A DNA stretch of 31,835 nucleotides from Acutalibacteraceae bacterium (GTDB lineage Bacteria; Bacillota; Clostridia; Oscillospirales; Acutalibacteraceae). Positions 1-31,603 of this stretch are shown here, piece by piece (the first letter of the stretch is position 1; each line of letters opens with the position of its first letter). Location: contig JAZUNC010000016.1 of assembly GCA_045603945.1 (NCBI GenBank), positions 1 through 31,835 of the forward strand, read 5' to 3'. The notes beneath the pieces are model-generated. The model ran no database searches and was not told the DNA's origin. It worked only from the letters and a program-made list of their open reading frames with translations. Position numbers and translations under genes: made by a program.

Positions 1-141
1 CTTCCGATACGAGTGTTGGCTTGCCCGACGGCTTTGTGATGAAGCTTCCATACTGCTCAACTATTGTCTTTTTGCCGAGTAGCTTTTCCAGCTCTCCGAG
101 AGATATAAGTGTCGTCTTCGTTACAACGCTCTCATCTACTC
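1..141. repeat. Terminal direct repeat, copy 1 (circular-contig overlap)
   Basis: Bases 1-141 (cttccgatac...catctactc) are identical to 31695-31835, and one reading frame runs across the join. Confidence 0.97.
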
Positions 142-1066
142 CGTTGTCAACCAAAGCTTGCAACAAAGCTCTCTCGTCGGTGTACTTTCTTACGCTTCTG
201 CCCTCTACTACCTTATATCGAGGTATCACCGTACCCGACAATGCAGAGCGTAAAGCATGCTCCTGCAATGCCTTGCACCACGCTTCGACGGCAGGCACAA
301 CGGTTAACTTCTCCGCTATCTCGGTTGGTGTTAACATGGCTACTTCTTTGTCGTTAACACCACTACACTCATTAGCGAGCTTACGGCATACACCTTTGGC
401 TTTGCAGAAGCGGCAATGCTCTCCCGTTGCAAATTCGCCACCACCGGTGTACGCCTCTATCGCGGTGTGTTTAAGCGTGCGGCTACCCCATGCAAGCAGC
501 TGAGAGGGTGTTATGCTATACACGCTGTGACTGTGTAGCCGAGGTTGCACGATATGCAGCACAACATTAGTGATGTTTTCACACGTCACCTTGGCTAACA
601 CGCCAAGGGCATACATCATTAGCTGGGGGTTCTCCTCAGCATCGACGGCAACACCTCTGCCATATTTCAAATCGAAAATATGAAGCGTGCCATCTGTGAT
701 AACGCATGCGTCAACCGTGCCATAGCATGCCGGCACAAAATCTGTCAAGTCAACTTTATACTCGACAAGCACGGTTGAGTTGTCGTTGATAGCTTCCATG
801 ACTGCCTCCACATAGATGTTAACGAAGTCGGGCATCTCAATGCTATAATGCTGTTGTTTCGATGCTTGCTGCATCAATACAGCTGCCGTATCTTTATCAA
901 TGGCTCCGGTGTAGCGTTTCAACGCTACCTCCGCTATATGATGGGCGAGCGTGCCTTCTTCGGCTACCTCACTTGTTGTATCGGGGAATAGTTGCTCCAA
1001 CCTCGCTGATGGAGGACAAGCGAGCCATCTGTGCGACCCTGAGGGTGATAAAATAGAGTGTGACAT
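1..1066 (-). CDS. DUF2800-type PD-(D/E)xK (Cas4-like) phage nuclease, 5' part; spans the origin (about 373 aa in total)
   Basis: Absent from the ORF track because it runs off the edge. Manual translation from ATG 1066: MSHSILSPSGSHRWLACPPSARLE...EEGTLAH...YGTVDACVI...IFDLKYGRGVAV...NPQLMMYALG...HCRFCKAKGVCR. Sits beside the SSB and PolA genes, as is usual for this module. Confidence 0.88.
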   Translation of the reverse strand, partial: MSHSILSPSGSHRWLACPPSARLEQLFPDTTSEVAEEGTLAHHIAEVALKRYTGAIDKDTAAVLMQQASKQQHYSIEMPDFVNIYVEAVMEAINDNSTVLVEYKVDLTDFVPACYGTVDACVITDGTLHIFDLKYGRGVAVDAEENPQLMMYALGVLAKVTCENITNVVLHIVQPRLHSHSVYSITPSQLLAWGSRTLKHTAIEAYTGGGEFATGEHCRFCKAKGVCRKLANECSGVNDKEVAMLTPTEIAEKLTVVPAVEAWCKALQEHALRSALSGTVIPRYKVVEGRSVRKYTDERALLQALVDNGVDESVVTKTTLISLGELEKLLGKKTIVEQYGSFITKPSGKPTLVSE

Positions 1067-3719: not shown

Positions 3720-4454
3720 ATGAAACAACGTATTAAGGAGTATTTAAGATTTAAGGGTATTAAAAATATGGATTTTTCCGCTGCGATTGGTGTATCAAAC
3801 GCCTATATATCAAGCATTAAGAGAAGTATTCAACCCGACAAACTTGCTCGAATCCAACAAAATTACCCCGACCTGAACATCGAATGGCTTGTTACGGGTC
3901 GCGGTGAAATGCTTAACACACCTCAACACATGAGCGTGATAAACAACGGCACTAACAGCGACACGATGGCAAACAATATAACGATGCACAACGCTCATCA
4001 GCATTGCCATAACGCAACAACAGCTGCGTGTAATGGCGATTGTGAGCATTGTGCAATCCCCGTCGTGCCGTCGGAGCTTACAACAGCACCAAATATAGAT
4101 GTATATAATGTAGTGACTAAATTAGATAATGTAAGCCGTTACCCTCACACCGGGCAAACGCCTCGACCCGACCTCTATTACCCCATCATGAGCCGAGCCA
4201 TGGAGCCGTACATCTGCCTCGGGGATAGGCTTGCCCTCGTCTCCTTCCCCATCGGCGAAGAGGCTATCGAACCCGGCACTCCTCACACCGTCGACACGAA
4301 GTCGAAAGGGTTCATCACACGGCTGCTATTTGACCACCCCGACGGCTATTTGGCTCGGGCTTTCGACCGAGAGCGATACCCCGACTTCGTCATCAAAAGA
4401 AGCGACGTTATACGCATCTATCGCATCATCGGGCTTATCCGCGTAAGGATGTAA
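3720..4454 (+). CDS. CI-like prophage repressor (XRE HTH plus degenerate S24-like C-terminal domain)
   Basis: N-terminal HTH ending in LNIEWLVTGRGEML; C-terminal IMSRAMEPYICLGD...VDTKSKGFITRLL...VIRIYRIIG follows the S24 layout; divergent from the early operon. Confidence 0.82.
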   Translation: MKQRIKEYLRFKGIKNMDFSAAIGVSNAYISSIKRSIQPDKLARIQQNYPDLNIEWLVTGRGEMLNTPQHMSVINNGTNSDTMANNITMHNAHQHCHNATTAACNGDCEHCAIPVVPSELTTAPNIDVYNVVTKLDNVSRYPHTGQTPRPDLYYPIMSRAMEPYICLGDRLALVSFPIGEEAIEPGTPHTVDTKSKGFITRLLFDHPDGYLARAFDRERYPDFVIKRSDVIRIYRIIGLIRVRM

Positions 4455-4750: not shown

Positions 4751-5857
4751 ATGAAGATAAGCACAACACTTTTACGCAACAACGTCATGGTGCGTGTCGC
4801 ATTCACTTCCAACATTCGCAAGCACTTCAACACTGGCGTGTCGGTAGCTGACCGCTCACAATTCGATAATGGTGCCATAGTCAACAGAGAAGACGCTGCC
4901 GAGCTTAACGCGAAGATAGGTGCAAAGCTTGCCGAGGTAAAGCGAGCCATTGACTTGCTCGAAGCCCAAGGCATAGATGTAACGCCTGACACATTATCTA
5001 ACGCACTTGACAAGCGTTGTGATATAGGCAGCTTCCTCGACTTCATGGAGAGACGAATCAAAGAGCGGCCTCTGCGTGAGAACTCGCGACGCAACCACCT
5101 CATCACTCTTGCGGCTCTTCGTCGTTTCGGCCGCATACAAAGCTTCGCATCTCTCACACCTGAAAATATAATGCTATTCGATAGCTTCCTGCGAGAGGAG
5201 GATGCGACACGCAAGCAGTCAACTATCCGAGGGTATCACAAGAGCATCAAGCCGTATATAAGAGAGGCGTTGCTGTCGAGGTATATACGCGTCAATCCTT
5301 ACGACCACTTTTATGTGCCTCGTGGTGCTGCCACTCCTCGCACTCCTCTCAGTGAGAGCGAGCTGCAACGCATTATCAACGCTCACCTCCCACACATATA
5401 TATAAAGGCTCGTGACATCTTTATCTTCCAAGCTTATACGGGCTTGTCGTACGCAGACGCAATGGCTTTCGATGCGAGAGAGCATCTCATCGTGCGTGAT
5501 GGGCATTCGTTCATCTCTCATGAGCGTATCAAAACGGGGACGAAATTTTTCACACCTCTGCTGCCAAACGCGGATGCCGTTTTGTTGAAATACGGTGATA
5601 GGCTACCACGCCTGAGCAATCAAAAATATAACATGCATCTGCACGCAATCGAGGGGATTGTTGGCATTGACAAGCCGTTAACTTCACACGTTGCCCGGCA
5701 CACGTTTGCAACACTGATGTTGTCCTATGACATGCCTATGGCTGTCGTGTCGCGTATGCTCGGGCATACAGATATAAATGTAACACAGCTATACGCGAAG
5801 ATAACAAGTGACAAGGTAGAGAGTGCCACAAGCAAGCTTTGGGGCGAATTAGAGTAA
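4751..5857 (+). CDS. int: Tyrosine integrase (Bacteroidota IntDOT/IntN1-like)
   Basis: FIFQAYTGLSYAD (Ser at the first catalytic Arg position, as in IntDOT), RIKTG, SHVARHTFAT (HxxR), LGHTDINVTQLYA (His and catalytic Tyr). Confidence 0.93.
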   Translation: MKISTTLLRNNVMVRVAFTSNIRKHFNTGVSVADRSQFDNGAIVNREDAAELNAKIGAKLAEVKRAIDLLEAQGIDVTPDTLSNALDKRCDIGSFLDFMERRIKERPLRENSRRNHLITLAALRRFGRIQSFASLTPENIMLFDSFLREEDATRKQSTIRGYHKSIKPYIREALLSRYIRVNPYDHFYVPRGAATPRTPLSESELQRIINAHLPHIYIKARDIFIFQAYTGLSYADAMAFDAREHLIVRDGHSFISHERIKTGTKFFTPLLPNADAVLLKYGDRLPRLSNQKYNMHLHAIEGIVGIDKPLTSHVARHTFATLMLSYDMPMAVVSRMLGHTDINVTQLYAKITSDKVESATSKLWGELE

Positions 5858-21419: not shown

Positions 21420-22341
21420 CGTCATTTTTACTTCTCTTAGGTTCATTTGTAAATGGTGCATCTTCGGGGTATGCATCGTACTCGATATTACCCTTACACC
21501 CATATACTCGTAATATCTTCGGAGCTATGTATCTATAACTAATCCGATGATGCAATCTACCGCCATTCATCTTTTGCCTCTCTGCGTGTATAGCCGACGG
21601 GTACGTTATAGGGCATACGAGCGACTTGTTCAACAGCTTACACTCCTTGTATAAGTCCGTTAAGCCCCCAGTTGCCGTCACACTCTGCACCTGATTTAAG
21701 ACCAATCCCGTACGAAAAGATGCTATAAAATACCCCTCGTTTAATGCTGCGACAAATTGCGACGTGTCGTCATCTTGCACACCTCGCTCACCCCTATATA
21801 CATAAGGCATTAATACAAAAGTCGTATTCATTATTTTTGCACGCAAAAGCCCTCTATCCAATTCTCCTGCATTAAATAGTTCACCCGTTTGCGAAAGCCC
21901 GAACAACCCGACGTGATAACGCCTCATCATTTTCTCGACTCCTCCAAAAACAATCTCGAAATTTTTTAAAGTTGCTTGCCCTTTGTACTTCCCGAAAGGT
22001 CTGTTTTCGTAACAAACAGTGTCGTCATCTATTACCACATAAAAATCTATGGATAAAGATTTTGCGATGTCGTAAAACATGTTACGAGCTTGCCCGGCAC
22101 TGCGACGAGCTTTACTCGGACGATGGATATAATCATATCGCAGACGAGCCTCCCTCATGTCAAAGATATGTAAATTAAAGCCGTATGAGCTTGCAACTTC
22201 CTTATAACTTTCAACATCATCCGCTTCATCATCTATAACGACATGTAGCTTATCGACGGGATAACCTATTTTCACGAAATAATTTACCGTTCTTATATTC
22301 TTTGCTCGGTGGTACGACGGTATAAAAATATTCGGCATCAT
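21412..22341 (-). CDS. GT-A fold glycosyltransferase, TAGT/GREB1-like
   Basis: IFIPSYHRA, AGQARN, VVIDDD (DxD-type) and DDDTSQ motifs. Confidence 0.7.
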   Translation of the reverse strand: MMPNIFIPSYHRAKNIRTVNYFVKIGYPVDKLHVVIDDEADDVESYKEVASSYGFNLHIFDMREARLRYDYIHRPSKARRSAGQARNMFYDIAKSLSIDFYVVIDDDTVCYENRPFGKYKGQATLKNFEIVFGGVEKMMRRYHVGLFGLSQTGELFNAGELDRGLLRAKIMNTTFVLMPYVYRGERGVQDDDTSQFVAALNEGYFIASFRTGLVLNQVQSVTATGGLTDLYKECKLLNKSLVCPITYPSAIHAERQKMNGGRLHHRISYRYIAPKILRVYGCKGNIEYDAYPEDAPFTNEPKRSKNDDE

Positions 22342-23120
22342 AACTCGTTTTGTTTATTCGCAATCCTCAACAACTCATCTTGTATAAATCCGTCAATGCT
22401 TCCATCAACCAACACTAAACGCAATCTCTCCATTACACGCTGCTCCTCCTCAGAGGCATTAAATGCATAGTAGTTCGCTACATTTTCGAAATCAATTTTA
22501 ATAAATCGATACGCGAAAAGTTTAAGTACTTCTCTCTGCTCTTCCGTTAATTTATATTCTTCGAGTGCTTTTATTTTCGCATTAAACTTCTCCAAATTAA
22601 CACAATCAACGAGCTTTATATTTGGCTTCTCCTCTGGCTGGTAATAAATGTCACTAAACGAAACATCCGATAAAATCTCCGTCATGGGACTGCTTCCTGA
22701 ATCCTGCGAGGATGCCTCACTCTCAATTGTTACTCCCCAATCCTCGGGCTTTACATTCCATCGCTCGGCTGCTACCTGTAATTCGTCGTAGTTCCATGAA
22801 AGATTTGCGGCACTCGTAGCGTTATCTGCGAGTGCCATGCGTCGCCCCTCTTCACTATCTATGTCGAGGTCTGTACGACGAACCACAACAAGCTCATCTC
22901 CTGTTGTGTCAATTATGCGGATGTTTTTGCGATTGAGAGACCTTGCAGCCTCCACGATGCCGTTGCCGGCGATAATGTTGTTGTCCTTGTCGACAACAAT
23001 TGAACGACCGAAACCGTTCTCCCTCACCGACTTTCGGAGTAGCTCCATGCCCTCCTCGGTGTGGTCGTTGAAGTTGTGTGCGTCATAATGTAACGCGTCA
23101 ATGTCATTATATTTGTTCAT
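22338..23120 (-). CDS. ParB/Srx-like domain protein with an additional C-terminal helical domain
   Basis: HNFNDH...SVRENGFGRSIVVDKDNNIIAGNG...MALADN. Likely start MNKYND at 23120. Confidence 0.75.
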   Translation of the reverse strand: MNKYNDIDALHYDAHNFNDHTEEGMELLRKSVRENGFGRSIVVDKDNNIIAGNGIVEAARSLNRKNIRIIDTTGDELVVVRRTDLDIDSEEGRRMALADNATSAANLSWNYDELQVAAERWNVKPEDWGVTIESEASSQDSGSSPMTEILSDVSFSDIYYQPEEKPNIKLVDCVNLEKFNAKIKALEEYKLTEEQREVLKLFAYRFIKIDFENVANYYAFNASEEEQRVMERLRLVLVDGSIDGFIQDELLRIANKQNEL

Positions 23121-23155: not shown

Positions 23156-23195
23156 CAAAGGTAGCAATTTTATTTGAAAAGCAAAATAAAATCGC
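23156..23195 (-). promoter_or_regulatory. Putative late-operon promoter with overlapping inverted repeat
   Basis: Minus-strand TACCTTTG (23156-23163) and TTTG (23182-23185); inverted repeat attttattt / aaataaaat at 23167-23192. Confidence 0.5.
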
Positions 23196-23226
23196 ATTTT
23201 TTAAGAAAAAAAATATTTGATAATAT

Positions 23227-23257
23227 TTTGTATTTTCAATAATAATTACTATCTTTG
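23227..23257 (+). promoter_or_regulatory. Consensus Bacteroidota sigma-A promoter of accessory cassette 2
   Basis: TTTG (23227-23230), 19-nt spacer, TATCTTTG (23250-23257). Confidence 0.75.
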
Positions 23258-23261
23258 TAGT

Positions 23262-23452
23262 GCAATCATAGAGTGATTGCAACGGATAATTCCTGATGCC
23301 GAGAAAAGAAAGGAATAACCCCCAAAATCTTACACGATGAAATTTAGAATTGAAGTCGAAGTTAAGAATTGGAAATTTAAAGTCTTAACAATTAAGATTG
23401 TTAAGTAGTTTCCAAAGGGGGTGGACGGGGTCAACGTCCGCCCCCTCTTGGG
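23262..23452 (+). ncRNA. Putative structured leader or small RNA (four hairpins)
   Basis: Stems: gcaatca-tagag-tgattgc; attcct...aggaat; cttaacaat-taag-attgttaag; ccaa-agggggtggacg...cgtccgccccct-c-ttgg. Confidence 0.5.
23336..23408 (+). pseudogene. Small amphipathic peptide frame one base out of register with its ATG
   Basis: ATG AAA ATT TAG at 23336, whereas the +1 frame reads KFRIEVEVKNWKFKVLTIKIVK-stop. Confidence 0.4.
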
Positions 23453-23479
23453 GGTTATGGTGCAAAAGTAAACAAAATT

Positions 23480-23686
23480 ATGGAAACCGAAAACAAAACA
23501 GAAAAGAAAAGTAATCGCGGAGGTAAACGAGTAGGAGCAGGACGAAAACCGAAAGGTGAGGCAAAACGTATAACACTTGGCTTCGTAGTATCGGAGACCG
23601 CTGCTAACAACCTCAAAGCGTATGCCGAGCGATTGGGCAAGACACGCAACGATGTTATCAATGAACTTTTAGAGGGGCTTATTTGA
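23480..23686 (+). CDS. Ribbon-helix-helix-type DNA-binding protein with N-terminal RGGxRxGAGRK motif
   Basis: NRGGKRVGAGRKP, beta strand RITLGFVV, then helices ETAANNLKAYAERLG-KTRNDVINELL. Confidence 0.7.
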   Translation: METENKTEKKSNRGGKRVGAGRKPKGEAKRITLGFVVSETAANNLKAYAERLGKTRNDVINELLEGLI

Positions 23687-23700
23687 CCCCTCTTTTTTTT
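23671..23700 (+). terminator. Intrinsic terminator overlapping the RHH stop codon
   Basis: agagggg-cttatttga-cccctct followed by a T-run. Confidence 0.7.
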
Positions 23701-23719: not shown

Positions 23720-25096
23720 TCACTTATACCTGTCAACAACCGCCTTAATAGCTCTCATCAAACACTCTTGCGTGTCTACTTTACCGGCAAGAGCTTTCGA
23801 CACCTCAACGTCCATCGTCCCCTCAACTAGCAAATGATAAACGTATACGGGCTTTGTTTGCCCCTGACGATTGAGCCGTGCATTCGCCTGTTGGTATAAC
23901 TCCAACGCCCAGTTAAGCCCATACCACACGATTATATTGCCTCCTCTCTGCATGTTAAGACCGTAAGCCGTCGATGCAGGGTGTGCAAGCAACACCTCTA
24001 TCTCGCCGTTATTCCAACGCTCTACGCAGCTGTCATCATCCATCACAACGACATTATAACCTTTTAGTGCTTGCTTAATGCGTGGTATTTCGTGCTTGAA
24101 TTGATAAAATAACAAAACGGGGTTGCCGTTTGCCTCCTCTATAAGCTCTGCTAACGCCTCTATCTTGCTATCATGTAGATGCTTTACATTTTTGTCGGCA
24201 TCATAGATGGCACCGCTTGCATATTGCAGCAGCTTGTTGGAGAGGGCTGCCGCATTAACCGCAGATATAGAGCCGTCCTCCTCCTCCGGGAGAGCAAGTA
24301 CTTGCTCCTTTGCAAATTGCTCATAATTCGCCCTCAGCTTGTCGGAGAGAGGTATCATTACATCGTGATAACTGCAAGCAGGGAGCGACAAATAATCCTC
24401 TGCTTTCATCGACACACAAAAGTCGGCTATCGCATTGTAGATGCGTTGCTCTCCATCGCTTTGCAGCTTGTAATCAAATACTACTTGCCCGTTTGTCCTG
24501 CCCGGTCGAAAATAATTTGCTCGGTAGTGCGTTATATATTTCCCAAGAGCGTTGCCTTGGTCAAGCAAATATACTTGCCCCCATAAGTCAATTAAGCCGT
24601 TAGGTGCTGGTGTTCCCGTCAAACCTACTACCCTCGCTAAGCGAGGGCGTATAGTTCTCATTGCCTTCCAGCGAGCCGACTTGTGATTTTTAAAACTCGA
24701 AAGCTCGTCAAGCACCACCATATCGAAAGGAATACGACGCCCACTATAATGAGCTACAAGCCATTGCACGTTTTCGCGATTCGTTATGTAAATATCTGCT
24801 TCACTATTTAACGCCTTGATACGCTGCTTCTCCGTGCCAAGGACGCGGATAGCTTTCAGATCCGATAGATGCTCCCACTTCTCTATCTCTTGCAGCCATA
24901 CCGATTGAGCAACCCTGAGAGGTGCTATTACAAGCACCTTGCTTATTTCGAGGTTATATATCAACCGCTTTATAGCCGTTAATACGCACACCGTTTTGCC
25001 AAGCCCCATTTCGAGAAATAGCCCGACATAAGGCGTCTCGATAATCTTCTCTATCGCATAACGTTGATAATCGTGCGGCTTAAAAGTCATCTGCAT
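23720..25096 (-). CDS. SNF2-like (SF2) helicase
   Basis: LEMGLGKT, VVLDELS, LTGTP and QANARLNRQGQ motifs. Confidence 0.9.
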   Translation of the reverse strand: MQMTFKPHDYQRYAIEKIIETPYVGLFLEMGLGKTVCVLTAIKRLIYNLEISKVLVIAPLRVAQSVWLQEIEKWEHLSDLKAIRVLGTEKQRIKALNSEADIYITNRENVQWLVAHYSGRRIPFDMVVLDELSSFKNHKSARWKAMRTIRPRLARVVGLTGTPAPNGLIDLWGQVYLLDQGNALGKYITHYRANYFRPGRTNGQVVFDYKLQSDGEQRIYNAIADFCVSMKAEDYLSLPACSYHDVMIPLSDKLRANYEQFAKEQVLALPEEEDGSISAVNAAALSNKLLQYASGAIYDADKNVKHLHDSKIEALAELIEEANGNPVLLFYQFKHEIPRIKQALKGYNVVVMDDDSCVERWNNGEIEVLLAHPASTAYGLNMQRGGNIIVWYGLNWALELYQQANARLNRQGQTKPVYVYHLLVEGTMDVEVSKALAGKVDTQECLMRAIKAVVDRYK

Positions 25097-25382
25097 AACA
25101 TATAAGGCGTTTAAATTCATTCAACTTCTCTGCACTATCTATCACAAATACCTCCTGCTGACGTTTCCGCAGCTCAGCATGTGCCAAATCTTGCAGCTTT
25201 GTAGGCTTCTTGCCCTTGCTTTTAAGCTCTACCCAACATGTGCCTCCGTCGGGCAATACAACCAATCTGTCAGGCAACCCTCGGTGATAGGGGTTGTGAA
25301 TTTTGATGCACATACCTCCGATGCCTTCTACCGCTTCGACAAGTTTACGCTCTAAATACTTCTCGCTATCCTTGCTATTCAT
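25080..25382 (-). CDS. VRR-NUC domain nuclease
   Basis: GLPDRLV...WVELKSKGKKPTKLQ (PD-(D/E)xK); adjacent to the SNF2 helicase. Confidence 0.88.
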   Translation of the reverse strand: MNSKDSEKYLERKLVEAVEGIGGMCIKIHNPYHRGLPDRLVVLPDGGTCWVELKSKGKKPTKLQDLAHAELRKRQQEVFVIDSAEKLNEFKRLICYADDF

Positions 25383-31036: not shown

Positions 31037-31603
31037 TTAAAATAGGTTGTCGATGTCATCTTGTGGCTCGATAGCCGGCACGTTGGCAAAATCAAATTCT
31101 GCTGTCGACGCACTACCGAGGTTTTCACCGTCACGAGTCTTCATGATGTGGTTGAGATAAGCTTTGATACCTTTTTTCCCGTTGACATCGTACGGAGCAA
31201 ATGTCATCGAAATCCACCCGTAACAACCGCTATAAAACTCGTCTTTGTCAATGATAGGCTTCTTATCTCGTCCTATTACACCCGGAGCCGTTTTTCGATT
31301 TGTGCTTATGTAATAACTATCTTTGTAAGCTGGGTTAATTTCTCTACCCTCTCCCGGGTTGTCGCCGTCTTTAAGGGGTAATGCGAGGCTTTCAAATGTG
31401 CGATTTCTGAACATGCCTTGTTTTTCCTCTTCGTATACCGTTCTTATTTTTTCGCTTATCTCATTAATTATATGAGTGTCTCTTTTGCTTATAACAGCTA
31501 CGACGCTGTATTTCGGGTTAACGTCGCCCCACGGCTCAAAAACGTGTGCGTAACTAAATCGAACCTCGCCGACTACTGCTTTTCGTGTTGTATTCTTTGC
31601 CAT
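31037..31603 (-). CDS. ssDNA-binding protein, DUF2815 / T7 gp2.5-like
   Basis: VRFSYAHVFEP...KYSV, FYSGCYG and GIKAYLNHIM motifs; acidic tail ending in Phe. Confidence 0.88.
   Translation of the reverse strand: MAKNTTRKAVVGEVRFSYAHVFEPWGDVNPKYSVVAVISKRDTHIINEISEKIRTVYEEEKQGMFRNRTFESLALPLKDGDNPGEGREINPAYKDSYYISTNRKTAPGVIGRDKKPIIDKDEFYSGCYGWISMTFAPYDVNGKKGIKAYLNHIMKTRDGENLGSASTAEFDFANVPAIEPQDDIDNLF

Follow-up and report, generated by a model that had tools for sequence, protein, structure and literature searches.

What is the cargo of a small transcription unit that runs against all of the genes around it? The question is raised by positions 23227-23700 (+ strand) of contig JAZUNC010000016.1, part of an Acutalibacteraceae bacterium assembly (GCA_045603945.1), of which the whole stretch of 31,835 nt was analysed here and is called the window below. 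All long ORFs between ~6.2 kb and 31.6 kb of the window lie on the minus strand, which makes this cassette the only plus-strand unit there, as a preliminary description made from the letters of the window had claimed. The ~470 bp of the cassette comprise a promoter, a leader of ~220 nt, a gene for a 68-aa ribbon-helix-helix (RHH) protein and a terminator; every feature listed in that description was recovered where it had been placed or a few bases off. Its further proposal, that the cargo is an RNA and/or a micropeptide under the control of the RHH protein, is partly supported and can be made more specific as regards the cargo: the leader is a conserved structured RNA, and within it lies a micropeptide ORF, likewise conserved and running in the direction of the RHH gene. 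From the comparison of related sequences we show the cassette to be an autonomous mobile unit of temperate Bacteroidales phages, consisting of a predicted junction RNA, an embedded micro-ORF under selection, an RHH gene and an exchangeable core. As to what it does, the reading that we rank first, with somewhat less than even confidence, is that of a type I toxin-antitoxin (TA)-like or immunity-like module.

Protein searches returned 22 close relatives of the RHH protein (68-92% identity) and ~57 more distant ones. From the contigs of fetched relatives, together with scans for the conserved pattern, 12 distinct leaders were collected (alignment A1), which fall into ~5 types and to which all fractions of 12 below refer. 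A single promoter and a single terminator enclose a predicted transcript of ~440 nt, which in the window folds with a z of -4.98 against shuffles, none of 100 being its equal. The consensus promoter of the preliminary description is of the sigma-ABfr type of Bacteroidetes, for which TAnnTTTG at -7 and TTTG near -33 have been quoted (PMC7366714); its -7 box is retained in 11 of the 12 relatives, and the predicted start coincides with the first base of hairpin P1 (Table 1). The cassette's own terminator is likewise borne out, as a hairpin followed by T8, and in the relatives a different stem sequence occupies the same place, again with a T run after it.

Does the leader itself act as a structured RNA? 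Across the set, its 5' block is ~89% identical, versus ~77% for the coding sequence (CDS) of the RHH protein. Folded singly, all 12 leaders give the same shape, a 5' hairpin and then a four-way junction, and the RNAalifold consensus is composed of hairpin P1, a small P2, and a junction closed by P5 that holds an arm over the start of the micro-ORF, P3/P3a and P4. In this consensus 94.8% of cells are paired, versus 38-54% when the partners are slid by 1-3 columns, and the observed covariation score was reached by none of 500 shuffles. The preliminary description had named RHH homologues lacking conserved upstream structure as the observation that would speak against it; among close homologues that bear a leader, the structure is common to all 12. 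The four stems listed there fared unevenly. P3a lies as described, P1 and P4 recur with shifted borders (formerly 23262-23280 and 23412-23451), and the stem placed at 23289-23316 was seen solely as the TCCT/AGGA pairing of P2 in the consensus fold. In the relative L022, P2 reads TTCCC...GGGAA versus TTCCT...AGGAA elsewhere, an apparent compensatory change in an aligned column that is scored as broken. Absent from the earlier list was the 11-bp long-range helix P5, which closes the four-way junction and is formed in every one of the 12 single-sequence folds.

Inside this junction, each of the 12 leaders carries an ATG-started ORF of 20-27 codons, the stop of which always lies a few bases before P4; its 3' half and stop codon are spanned by P3. 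In the frame of this micro-ORF, within-type pN/pS is ~0.1-0.5 (mostly 0.1-0.3) in 15 of 16 pairs, the other two frames of the region giving values mostly near or above 1, and in four independent pairs the changes at codon positions 1, 2 and 3 number 20, 9 and 29. Judged by this pattern of substitution, the micro-ORF is truly coding and under purifying selection, and with fewer than 60 codons it is of the size seen in type I TA. All five peptide types alternate hydrophobic and basic residues around a K-(I/N/L)-(W/G)-K turn, with a net charge of +3 to +5 and a beta-hairpin-like pattern. A homologue search with the micropeptide returned two near-identical 43-aa calls only. An upstream ATG at 23296 was considered as an alternative ORF start and rejected: it is not conserved, opens 2 codons in L022, is missing in L011, L026, L040 and L041, and varies in frame. 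The predicted unpaired probability is 0.19-0.32 at the micro-ORF start versus 0.65-0.89 at the RHH start (12/12), the latter lying in an open, A-rich stretch. Since the one start is mostly paired and the other open, the structure is predicted to gate the peptide and not the RHH protein. Between the two genes, a mini-ORF of four codons (23457-23471, ATG GTG CAA AAG TAA) is present in 9 of the 12 relatives, its stop lying 8 nt ahead of the RHH start; the remaining three have the same ATG in the reading frame of the RHH gene, which it lengthens by 8 residues.

The opposite strand contributes a candidate partner. Here TAnnTTTG stands at the same position in all 12 relatives, and in one type the flanks are altered with the specified bases kept; this minus-strand box would account for the invariant GCAAAAnTA that follows P5 on the plus strand. 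The antisense start predicted from it is the first base of a P5 strand, and the RNA of ~165 nt that could result would fold into a mirror image of the sense junction. It would end where, past its P5 helix, the strand opposite the purine-rich and near-invariant loop of P2 forms a pyrimidine/U-rich tract; in this tract, U occupies 7-8 of 12 positions in 11 of the 12 relatives and 5 of 12 in L022. A second minus-strand box, TAATTTTG at 23473-23480, was rejected, being found in just 7 of the 12.

The segment from about P2 to P4, the stretch covered by the proposed antisense RNA, is also the piece that is exchanged among relatives. L011 and L029 have common flanks and RHH genes that are 96% identical, and their junctions are 69% identical and encode different peptide types. 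Similarly, L038 and L039 agree at 94% in the RHH gene and 67% in the junction, and L038 and L011 at 73% and 87%. By these alignments, the junction module is swapped independently of the RHH gene. The cassette as a whole is found in several settings. In phages (the window, L012, L013, L015, L022 and L041) it lies between the head of the late operon and an SNF2 helicase gene. In L026 and L040 the context resembles a mobile element, between a polyvalent-protein gene (LPD3, PBECR3 and ART domains) and the HicA toxin. Chromosomal remnants adjoin uvrA (L011 and L029, where ~150 nt of the helicase 3' end remain) or genes of type IX secretion system (T9SS) type (L016). In all of these settings the cassette is intact, including that by uvrA with its 150-nt helicase stub, and in the non-phage copies homology begins at about the -7 box. 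The chromosomal site by uvrA, with the cassette and the ~150-nt stub, is the same one in L011 (2660-3390) and L029 (- strand, 600-1300); as these two differ in micropeptide type at the same site, gene conversion by incoming phages is suggested.

Downstream of the leader, the gene product is, by profile and structure prediction, a ribbon-helix-helix (CopG/Arc/MetJ) protein, in line with the earlier assignment. A profile of 50 relatives (A2) matches CopG 1b01/2cpg with an E of 9e-6, and 17 of the 50 match PF01402 (RHH_1); searched singly, the window protein matches just ParG, with an E of 0.09. The AlphaFold model has a pLDDT above 90 at residues 31-68, with helices at 39-52 and 56-65, and its best Foldseek matches are CopG, ParG, TacA and Arc (rmsd ~1.2 Å). 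The N-terminal arm of ~28 residues is disordered and carries the motif RGGxRxGAGRKP, five residues of which (G14, G15, R17, G19, G21) are, with M1, invariant across all 50 relatives. CopG of plasmid pMV158 (RHH_1, PF01402) is alike in the fold and size of its DNA-binding core (rmsd 1.2 Å over 38 residues); unlike it, the cassette protein has the disordered basic arm of ~28 residues and a different genetic context. No operator was assigned to the protein; among the relatives compared, the sequence of P1 shows no co-variation with the residues predicted to read DNA. A search of NCBIfam gave a sub-threshold match to the BrnA antitoxin only. The family A2 (relatives of window positions 23480-23683) consists of RHH proteins of 60-70 aa with RGGxRxGAGRKP and has no covering Pfam model; database entries of 86-104 aa are gene-caller extensions upstream into the leader. 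The motif occurs also in unrelated IMG/VR phage proteins (L002-L010), and these distant RHH relatives, with the N-terminal motif in common, have no comparable leader. In addition, a lone RHH gene, 71-90% identical and without leader or micro-ORF, lies 22 nt after SIR2/cobB in at least 20 contigs (L018-L021, L044-L053; e.g. L044:1081-1287), where the next gene is mostly one for DUF5053 and, in L044, a release-factor gene; it looks like a domesticated copy.

Table 1. Features of the cassette and its surroundings, in window coordinates
Feature	Positions	Strand	Basis or remark
Candidate -7 box TACCTTTG of the divergent late operon	23156-23163	-	Pattern match; ~36 nt upstream of the ParB-like start (23120)
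Sense promoter: TTTG (23227-23230), 19 nt, TATCTTTG (23250-23257)	23227-23257	+	Sequence and pattern match
P1 hairpin, predicted mRNA 5' end	23261-23281	+	UA/CG covariation in 4 sequences; U-G wobble in 6/12
P2 (TCCT/AGGA), near-invariant purine-rich loop	23290-23316	+	Consensus fold
Candidate antisense RNA, ~165 nt, mirror-image junction	23295-23458	-	Both ends inferred; fold -52.2 kcal/mol, z -5.1
P5, 5' strand ATAACCCCCAA	23315-23325	+	Internal inverted repeat; 11 bp, invariant in 12/12
Micro-ORF, 23 codons and stop, MKFRIEVEVKNWKFKVLTIKIVK	23337-23408	+	ORF in 12/12 relatives
P3 (TTGGAAATT/AGTTTCCAA) with inner hairpin P3a (23384-23405)	23369-23415	+	P3a: 3 covarying pairs (AU/GC)
P4 hairpin, G+C-rich	23416-23446	+	Two covarying pairs (AU/GC, CG/UA); U-G wobble in 8/12
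P5, 3' strand TTGGGGGTTAT; contains ATG of 4-codon mini-ORF	23448-23458	+	Inverted repeat, folds
Candidate antisense -7 box TACTTTTG	23463-23470	-	TAnnTTTG at same position in 12/12
RHH (CopG-type) protein, 68 aa, basic N-terminal arm RGGxRxGAGRKP	23480-23686	+	Profile, AlphaFold, Foldseek
Intrinsic terminator: hairpin (23672-23693), then eight T; RHH stop codon in loop	23672-23700	+	Fold and sequence

So how might these parts work together? The RHH protein would repress its own promoter and thus limit expression to a short pulse. The finished mRNA would be shut to ribosomes at the micro-ORF by the long-range helix P5, comparable to the hok and aapA1 mRNAs, and a cis-antisense RNA started from the minus-strand -7 box would cover the entire junction, as Sib does over ibs. 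Pairing between antisense and sense RNA could then decide whether the peptide is produced. The peptide itself would be the payload, with a growth-inhibiting or exclusion function, and the cassette a type I TA-like addiction module or an immunity module, the specificity of which would reside in the exchangeable junction segment. We place this reading first because it jointly covers the buried start codon, the minus-strand box, the exchange of that very segment and the survival of the cassette after loss of the phage. Of the analogies drawn in the preliminary description, that with type I TA loci alone gains support, from the conserved antisense -7 box, the buried start codon and the mosaic exchange. 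In Ibs/Sib, by our comparison the nearest pattern to the cassette, the antisense RNA spans the entire ORF according to T1TAdb (PMC8594479). With Ibs/Sib, Hok/Sok and AapA1/IsoA1 the cassette shares an ORF of ~20 codons, a predicted long-range mRNA helix that buries its start, a candidate cis-antisense RNA as wide as the ORF, the occurrence of several sequence types, and a location in prophage or mobile DNA. It differs from all three in that its peptide is cationic and beta-hairpin-like instead of a hydrophobic helix, in that an RHH regulator is co-transcribed downstream, in that its toxicity and antisense RNA are putative, and in its host phylum, Bacteroidota, which is without validated type I systems (PMC12390103).

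A number of points weigh against a type I TA-like or immunity-like module. Stretches of the peptide free of charged and amide residues reach 3-8 residues at most, too short for a membrane helix; lacking the usual hydrophobic helix, the cassette is not filed here as a member of type I TA. The conserved codons ..AAG ATT TGG AAA.. (K-I-W-K) are at the same time strands of two helices, so that conservation of the peptide may partly be a constraint on the RNA. As P5 is invariant in ~5 types and 12 sequences, this helix is backed by conservation and by the single folds, and shows no covariation. On the minus strand, a -33 element is well spaced in only 4 of the 12 relatives, and the proposed antisense terminator is an unusual one, a multibranch structure. 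The antisense -7 box is part of the A-rich stretch before the RHH start, where its conservation may serve translation initiation. Moreover, TAnnTTTG is found 47 times in the window, and in low-GC genomes chance promoters, antisense ones included, are frequent (PMC7366714). Transcripts, starts and translation are predictions on both strands, and the role given to the RHH protein is taken solely from the habit of its family. With regard to expression, no RNA dataset containing the window itself was listed. Three metatranscriptome runs share few words with the window, two of them matching the AT-rich promoter stretch only, and one bovine-gut run contains two contigs, short and of low depth, that cover the RHH CDS in a relative with differing upstream sequence; such matches speak neither for nor against expression.

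Possible too, though we regard it as rather doubtful, is a module of a kind not yet described, proper to the phages of Bacteroidota. In such a module, sense and antisense four-way junctions that mirror each other and start exactly at helices would gate a cationic beta-hairpin micropeptide, and the ~150-nt junction would be an exchangeable specificity cartridge for mutual recognition or exclusion between resident remnants and incoming phages, with the RHH repressor on the same mRNA setting the pulse. By our searches, the RNA and the peptide are covered by no entry of Rfam, Pfam or PADLOC and by no PHROG function. In Rfam, the window had no match at the gathering threshold, the best weak match having an E of 0.5 and 16 bits versus a cut-off of 58.6.

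The surroundings of the cassette bring up another explanation. The window, one entire contig of a metagenome bin of 1.23 Mb, looks like a temperate Bacteroidales phage of siphovirus-like type. Its minus strand encodes a Gp2.5-like annealing protein, a DNA polymerase, a primase-helicase, a VRR-NUC-like nuclease and an SNF2 helicase (23720-25120) on one side of the cassette, and past it a ParB-like gene (22338-23120), a glycosyltransferase-like gene, the small and large terminase and structural genes; the plus strand holds an integrase gene (4751-5857) and a CI-like gene (3720-4454). In this temperate phage with integrase and CI-like genes, the cassette lies between the replication genes and the ParB-like gene that heads the late operon, and its peptide could be no toxin but a phage-regulatory effector, for instance an antirepressor of the CI-like repressor, feeding into the lysis-lysogeny decision in the manner of P22 immI or of the prophage induction modules described below, with the RNA fold and the RHH protein limiting its timing. 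We think this unlikely. The immI regions of P22 (arc-ant-sar) and of P1 and P7 (c4 RNA-icd-ant) are secondary immunity units outside the main repressor region; one transcript there unites a small ORF and antisense pairing with either a structured RNA or, as Arc, a repressor of the RHH class, and the specificity segments are exchangeable. The cassette resembles them in the combination of an RHH protein or structured RNA with a small ORF and exchangeable segments, antisense pairing being only a candidate here; unlike them, it has no gene of antirepressor size, places the peptide before the RHH gene and shows no sequence similarity.

A further comparison is with the prophage induction modules composed of a transcription factor (TF) and a small ORF (smORF), in which an HTH-type TF activates the promoter of a divergent smORF of ~60 aa, without mention of a structured RNA (Silpe et al. 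2023; PMC10432266). Their smORF product inactivates cI, and one of the modules sits between partition and late genes (PMC10432266). Like them, the cassette is a small counter-oriented unit of a temperate phage, pairs a TF with a tiny ORF without a family, lies near partition-like and late genes, and belongs to a set of sequence-diverse modules. In contrast to the ~60-aa, divergent smORFs (PMC10432266), however, its ORF has 20-27 codons and is co-transcribed with a TF of the RHH class, on the same strand behind one promoter and inside an RNA junction. The exchange of peptide type independently of the RHH gene also speaks against an effector of the phage's own decision, as do the intact cassettes that survive at sites which have lost the remainder of the phage and any CI with it.

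Does the peptide need to have a function at all? The micro-ORF could be a cis-acting leader ORF only, its translation remodelling the junction and thereby tuning how much RHH protein is made or how stable the mRNA is. The tetQ operon of CTnDOT is a known case of leader-peptide attenuation in Bacteroides, the micro-ORF lies wholly inside helices, and the mini-ORF that ends just before the RHH start, or shares its frame, would suit such coupling. But the low pN/pS in 15 of the 16 pairs and the second codon positions being the least changed indicate selection at the amino-acid level, the alternating hydrophobic/basic pattern is kept in all five peptide types, the RHH start is predicted to be open whatever the state of the junction, and the RHH gene appears to function in genomes without the leader. 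A functionless peptide is therefore, in our estimate, improbable to much the same degree as a regulatory effector.

Very improbable is a further alternative, namely that the conserved blocks act as DNA, as RHH operators, a replication origin or a packaging site, with the inverted repeats serving as protein sites. The inverted repeat of P5 is indeed perfect and never varies, P1 forms a palindrome where transcription is predicted to start, and the cassette lies between replication and packaging genes. Still, U-G wobbles in P1 (6/12) and P4 (8/12) preserve RNA pairing and break DNA symmetry, compensatory changes are found in P3a and P4, and 11 of the 12 relatives have a more stable junction on the sense strand than on the antisense strand. 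The wobbles and the higher stability of the sense fold thus argue for a plus-strand RNA and not for DNA palindromes, and the cassette moreover persists in chromosomes without the replication or packaging genes of a phage. Least credible of all is the anti-defence operon that had been considered earlier, with the RHH protein as the Aca of an acr-aca pair or the leader as an RNA anti-CRISPR, for which there speak the acr-aca-like layout of a small cargo followed by a small DNA-binding protein, presumably an autoregulator, between its own promoter and terminator, and one weak match of the RHH profile to a PDB entry titled anti-CRISPR protein (E 0.21), but which is opposed by the lack of an Acr-sized protein (the cargo is an RNA junction and a micropeptide of just 20-27 aa, far below the size of known Acr proteins), by searches of PADLOC and Rfam and for Acr-type proteins without match, by leader helices unlike a repeat-spacer unit, and by an assembly, perhaps not that of the true host, in which the leader has neither a second copy nor a repeat-like match.

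Other searches and observations concern the distribution of the cassette and the phage that carries it. The closest public phages in INPHARED have Bacteroides or Parabacteroides hosts, and their similarity to the window is confined to the helicase gene; a tblastn search of these phages with the RHH protein gave no match. In the window, TAnnTTTG occurs 47 times on both strands, versus 24.5 expected from shuffles, with 4 of the 47 within 23156-23480, an excess that is consistent with a Bacteroidota host. At the contig ends (window 1-1066 and 31037-31603), an exonuclease gene is cut and the Gp2.5-like annealing gene lies at the opposite end; as these two genes are normally adjacent, the window is probably a near-complete, circularly permuted genome. 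Contigs related to it measure ~33.5 kb. One phage lineage carries an insertion downstream of the RHH terminator and ahead of the SNF2 helicase, consisting of a DUF5053 gene and an ORF of 50 aa (L022:516-975). Exact-pattern scans of IMG/VR revealed no further relatives, a pattern scan of GTDB gave two true matches (L026 and L029) and two unrelated ones, and metagenome scans gave 0 matches with a first pattern and two unrelated loci, L030 and L031, with a second. A BLAST comparison with 400 genomes of the same order yielded chance 25-mers only, and the targets of the leader sought elsewhere in the window were chance 11-12-mers only. A different element, bounded by GAATAACCCCCAAT ... ATTGGGGGTTATGCAC and with nested long inverted repeats, is present on unrelated Bacteroidetes contigs (L028:5323-5466, L030:1327-1472); it has no Rfam match and no adjoining RHH gene.

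Little has been charted of RNA regulation in the Bacteroidales of the gut and in their phages. According to the transcriptome study of B. thetaiotaomicron, only two small RNAs were known ahead of its map of 2020, and the seven type I TA candidates flagged in this species are unvalidated (PMC7366714). Reports of type I systems are confined to Proteobacteria, Firmicutes and Tenericutes, with none validated in Bacteroidota (PMC12390103). Against this background, the cassette offers a compact example of ~470 bp in which a regulator and a candidate antisense partner accompany a conserved structured RNA and a micropeptide under selection, with natural variants that resemble specificity swaps. Even if the type I TA-like or immunity-like reading were false, an unannotated family of conserved RNA and micro-ORF would stand, one that gene callers have missed or mis-called. 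If it is true, type I TA-like logic would extend to phages of Bacteroidota and to a peptide that is not a membrane helix, which could explain how the cassette survives the decay of prophages and would provide a small orthogonal control part for the engineering of Bacteroides. Should the mirror-image junctions gate the micropeptide and serve as an exchangeable specificity cartridge, Bacteroidota would gain a validated system of type I TA-like or immunity kind, and with it a new type of toxin.

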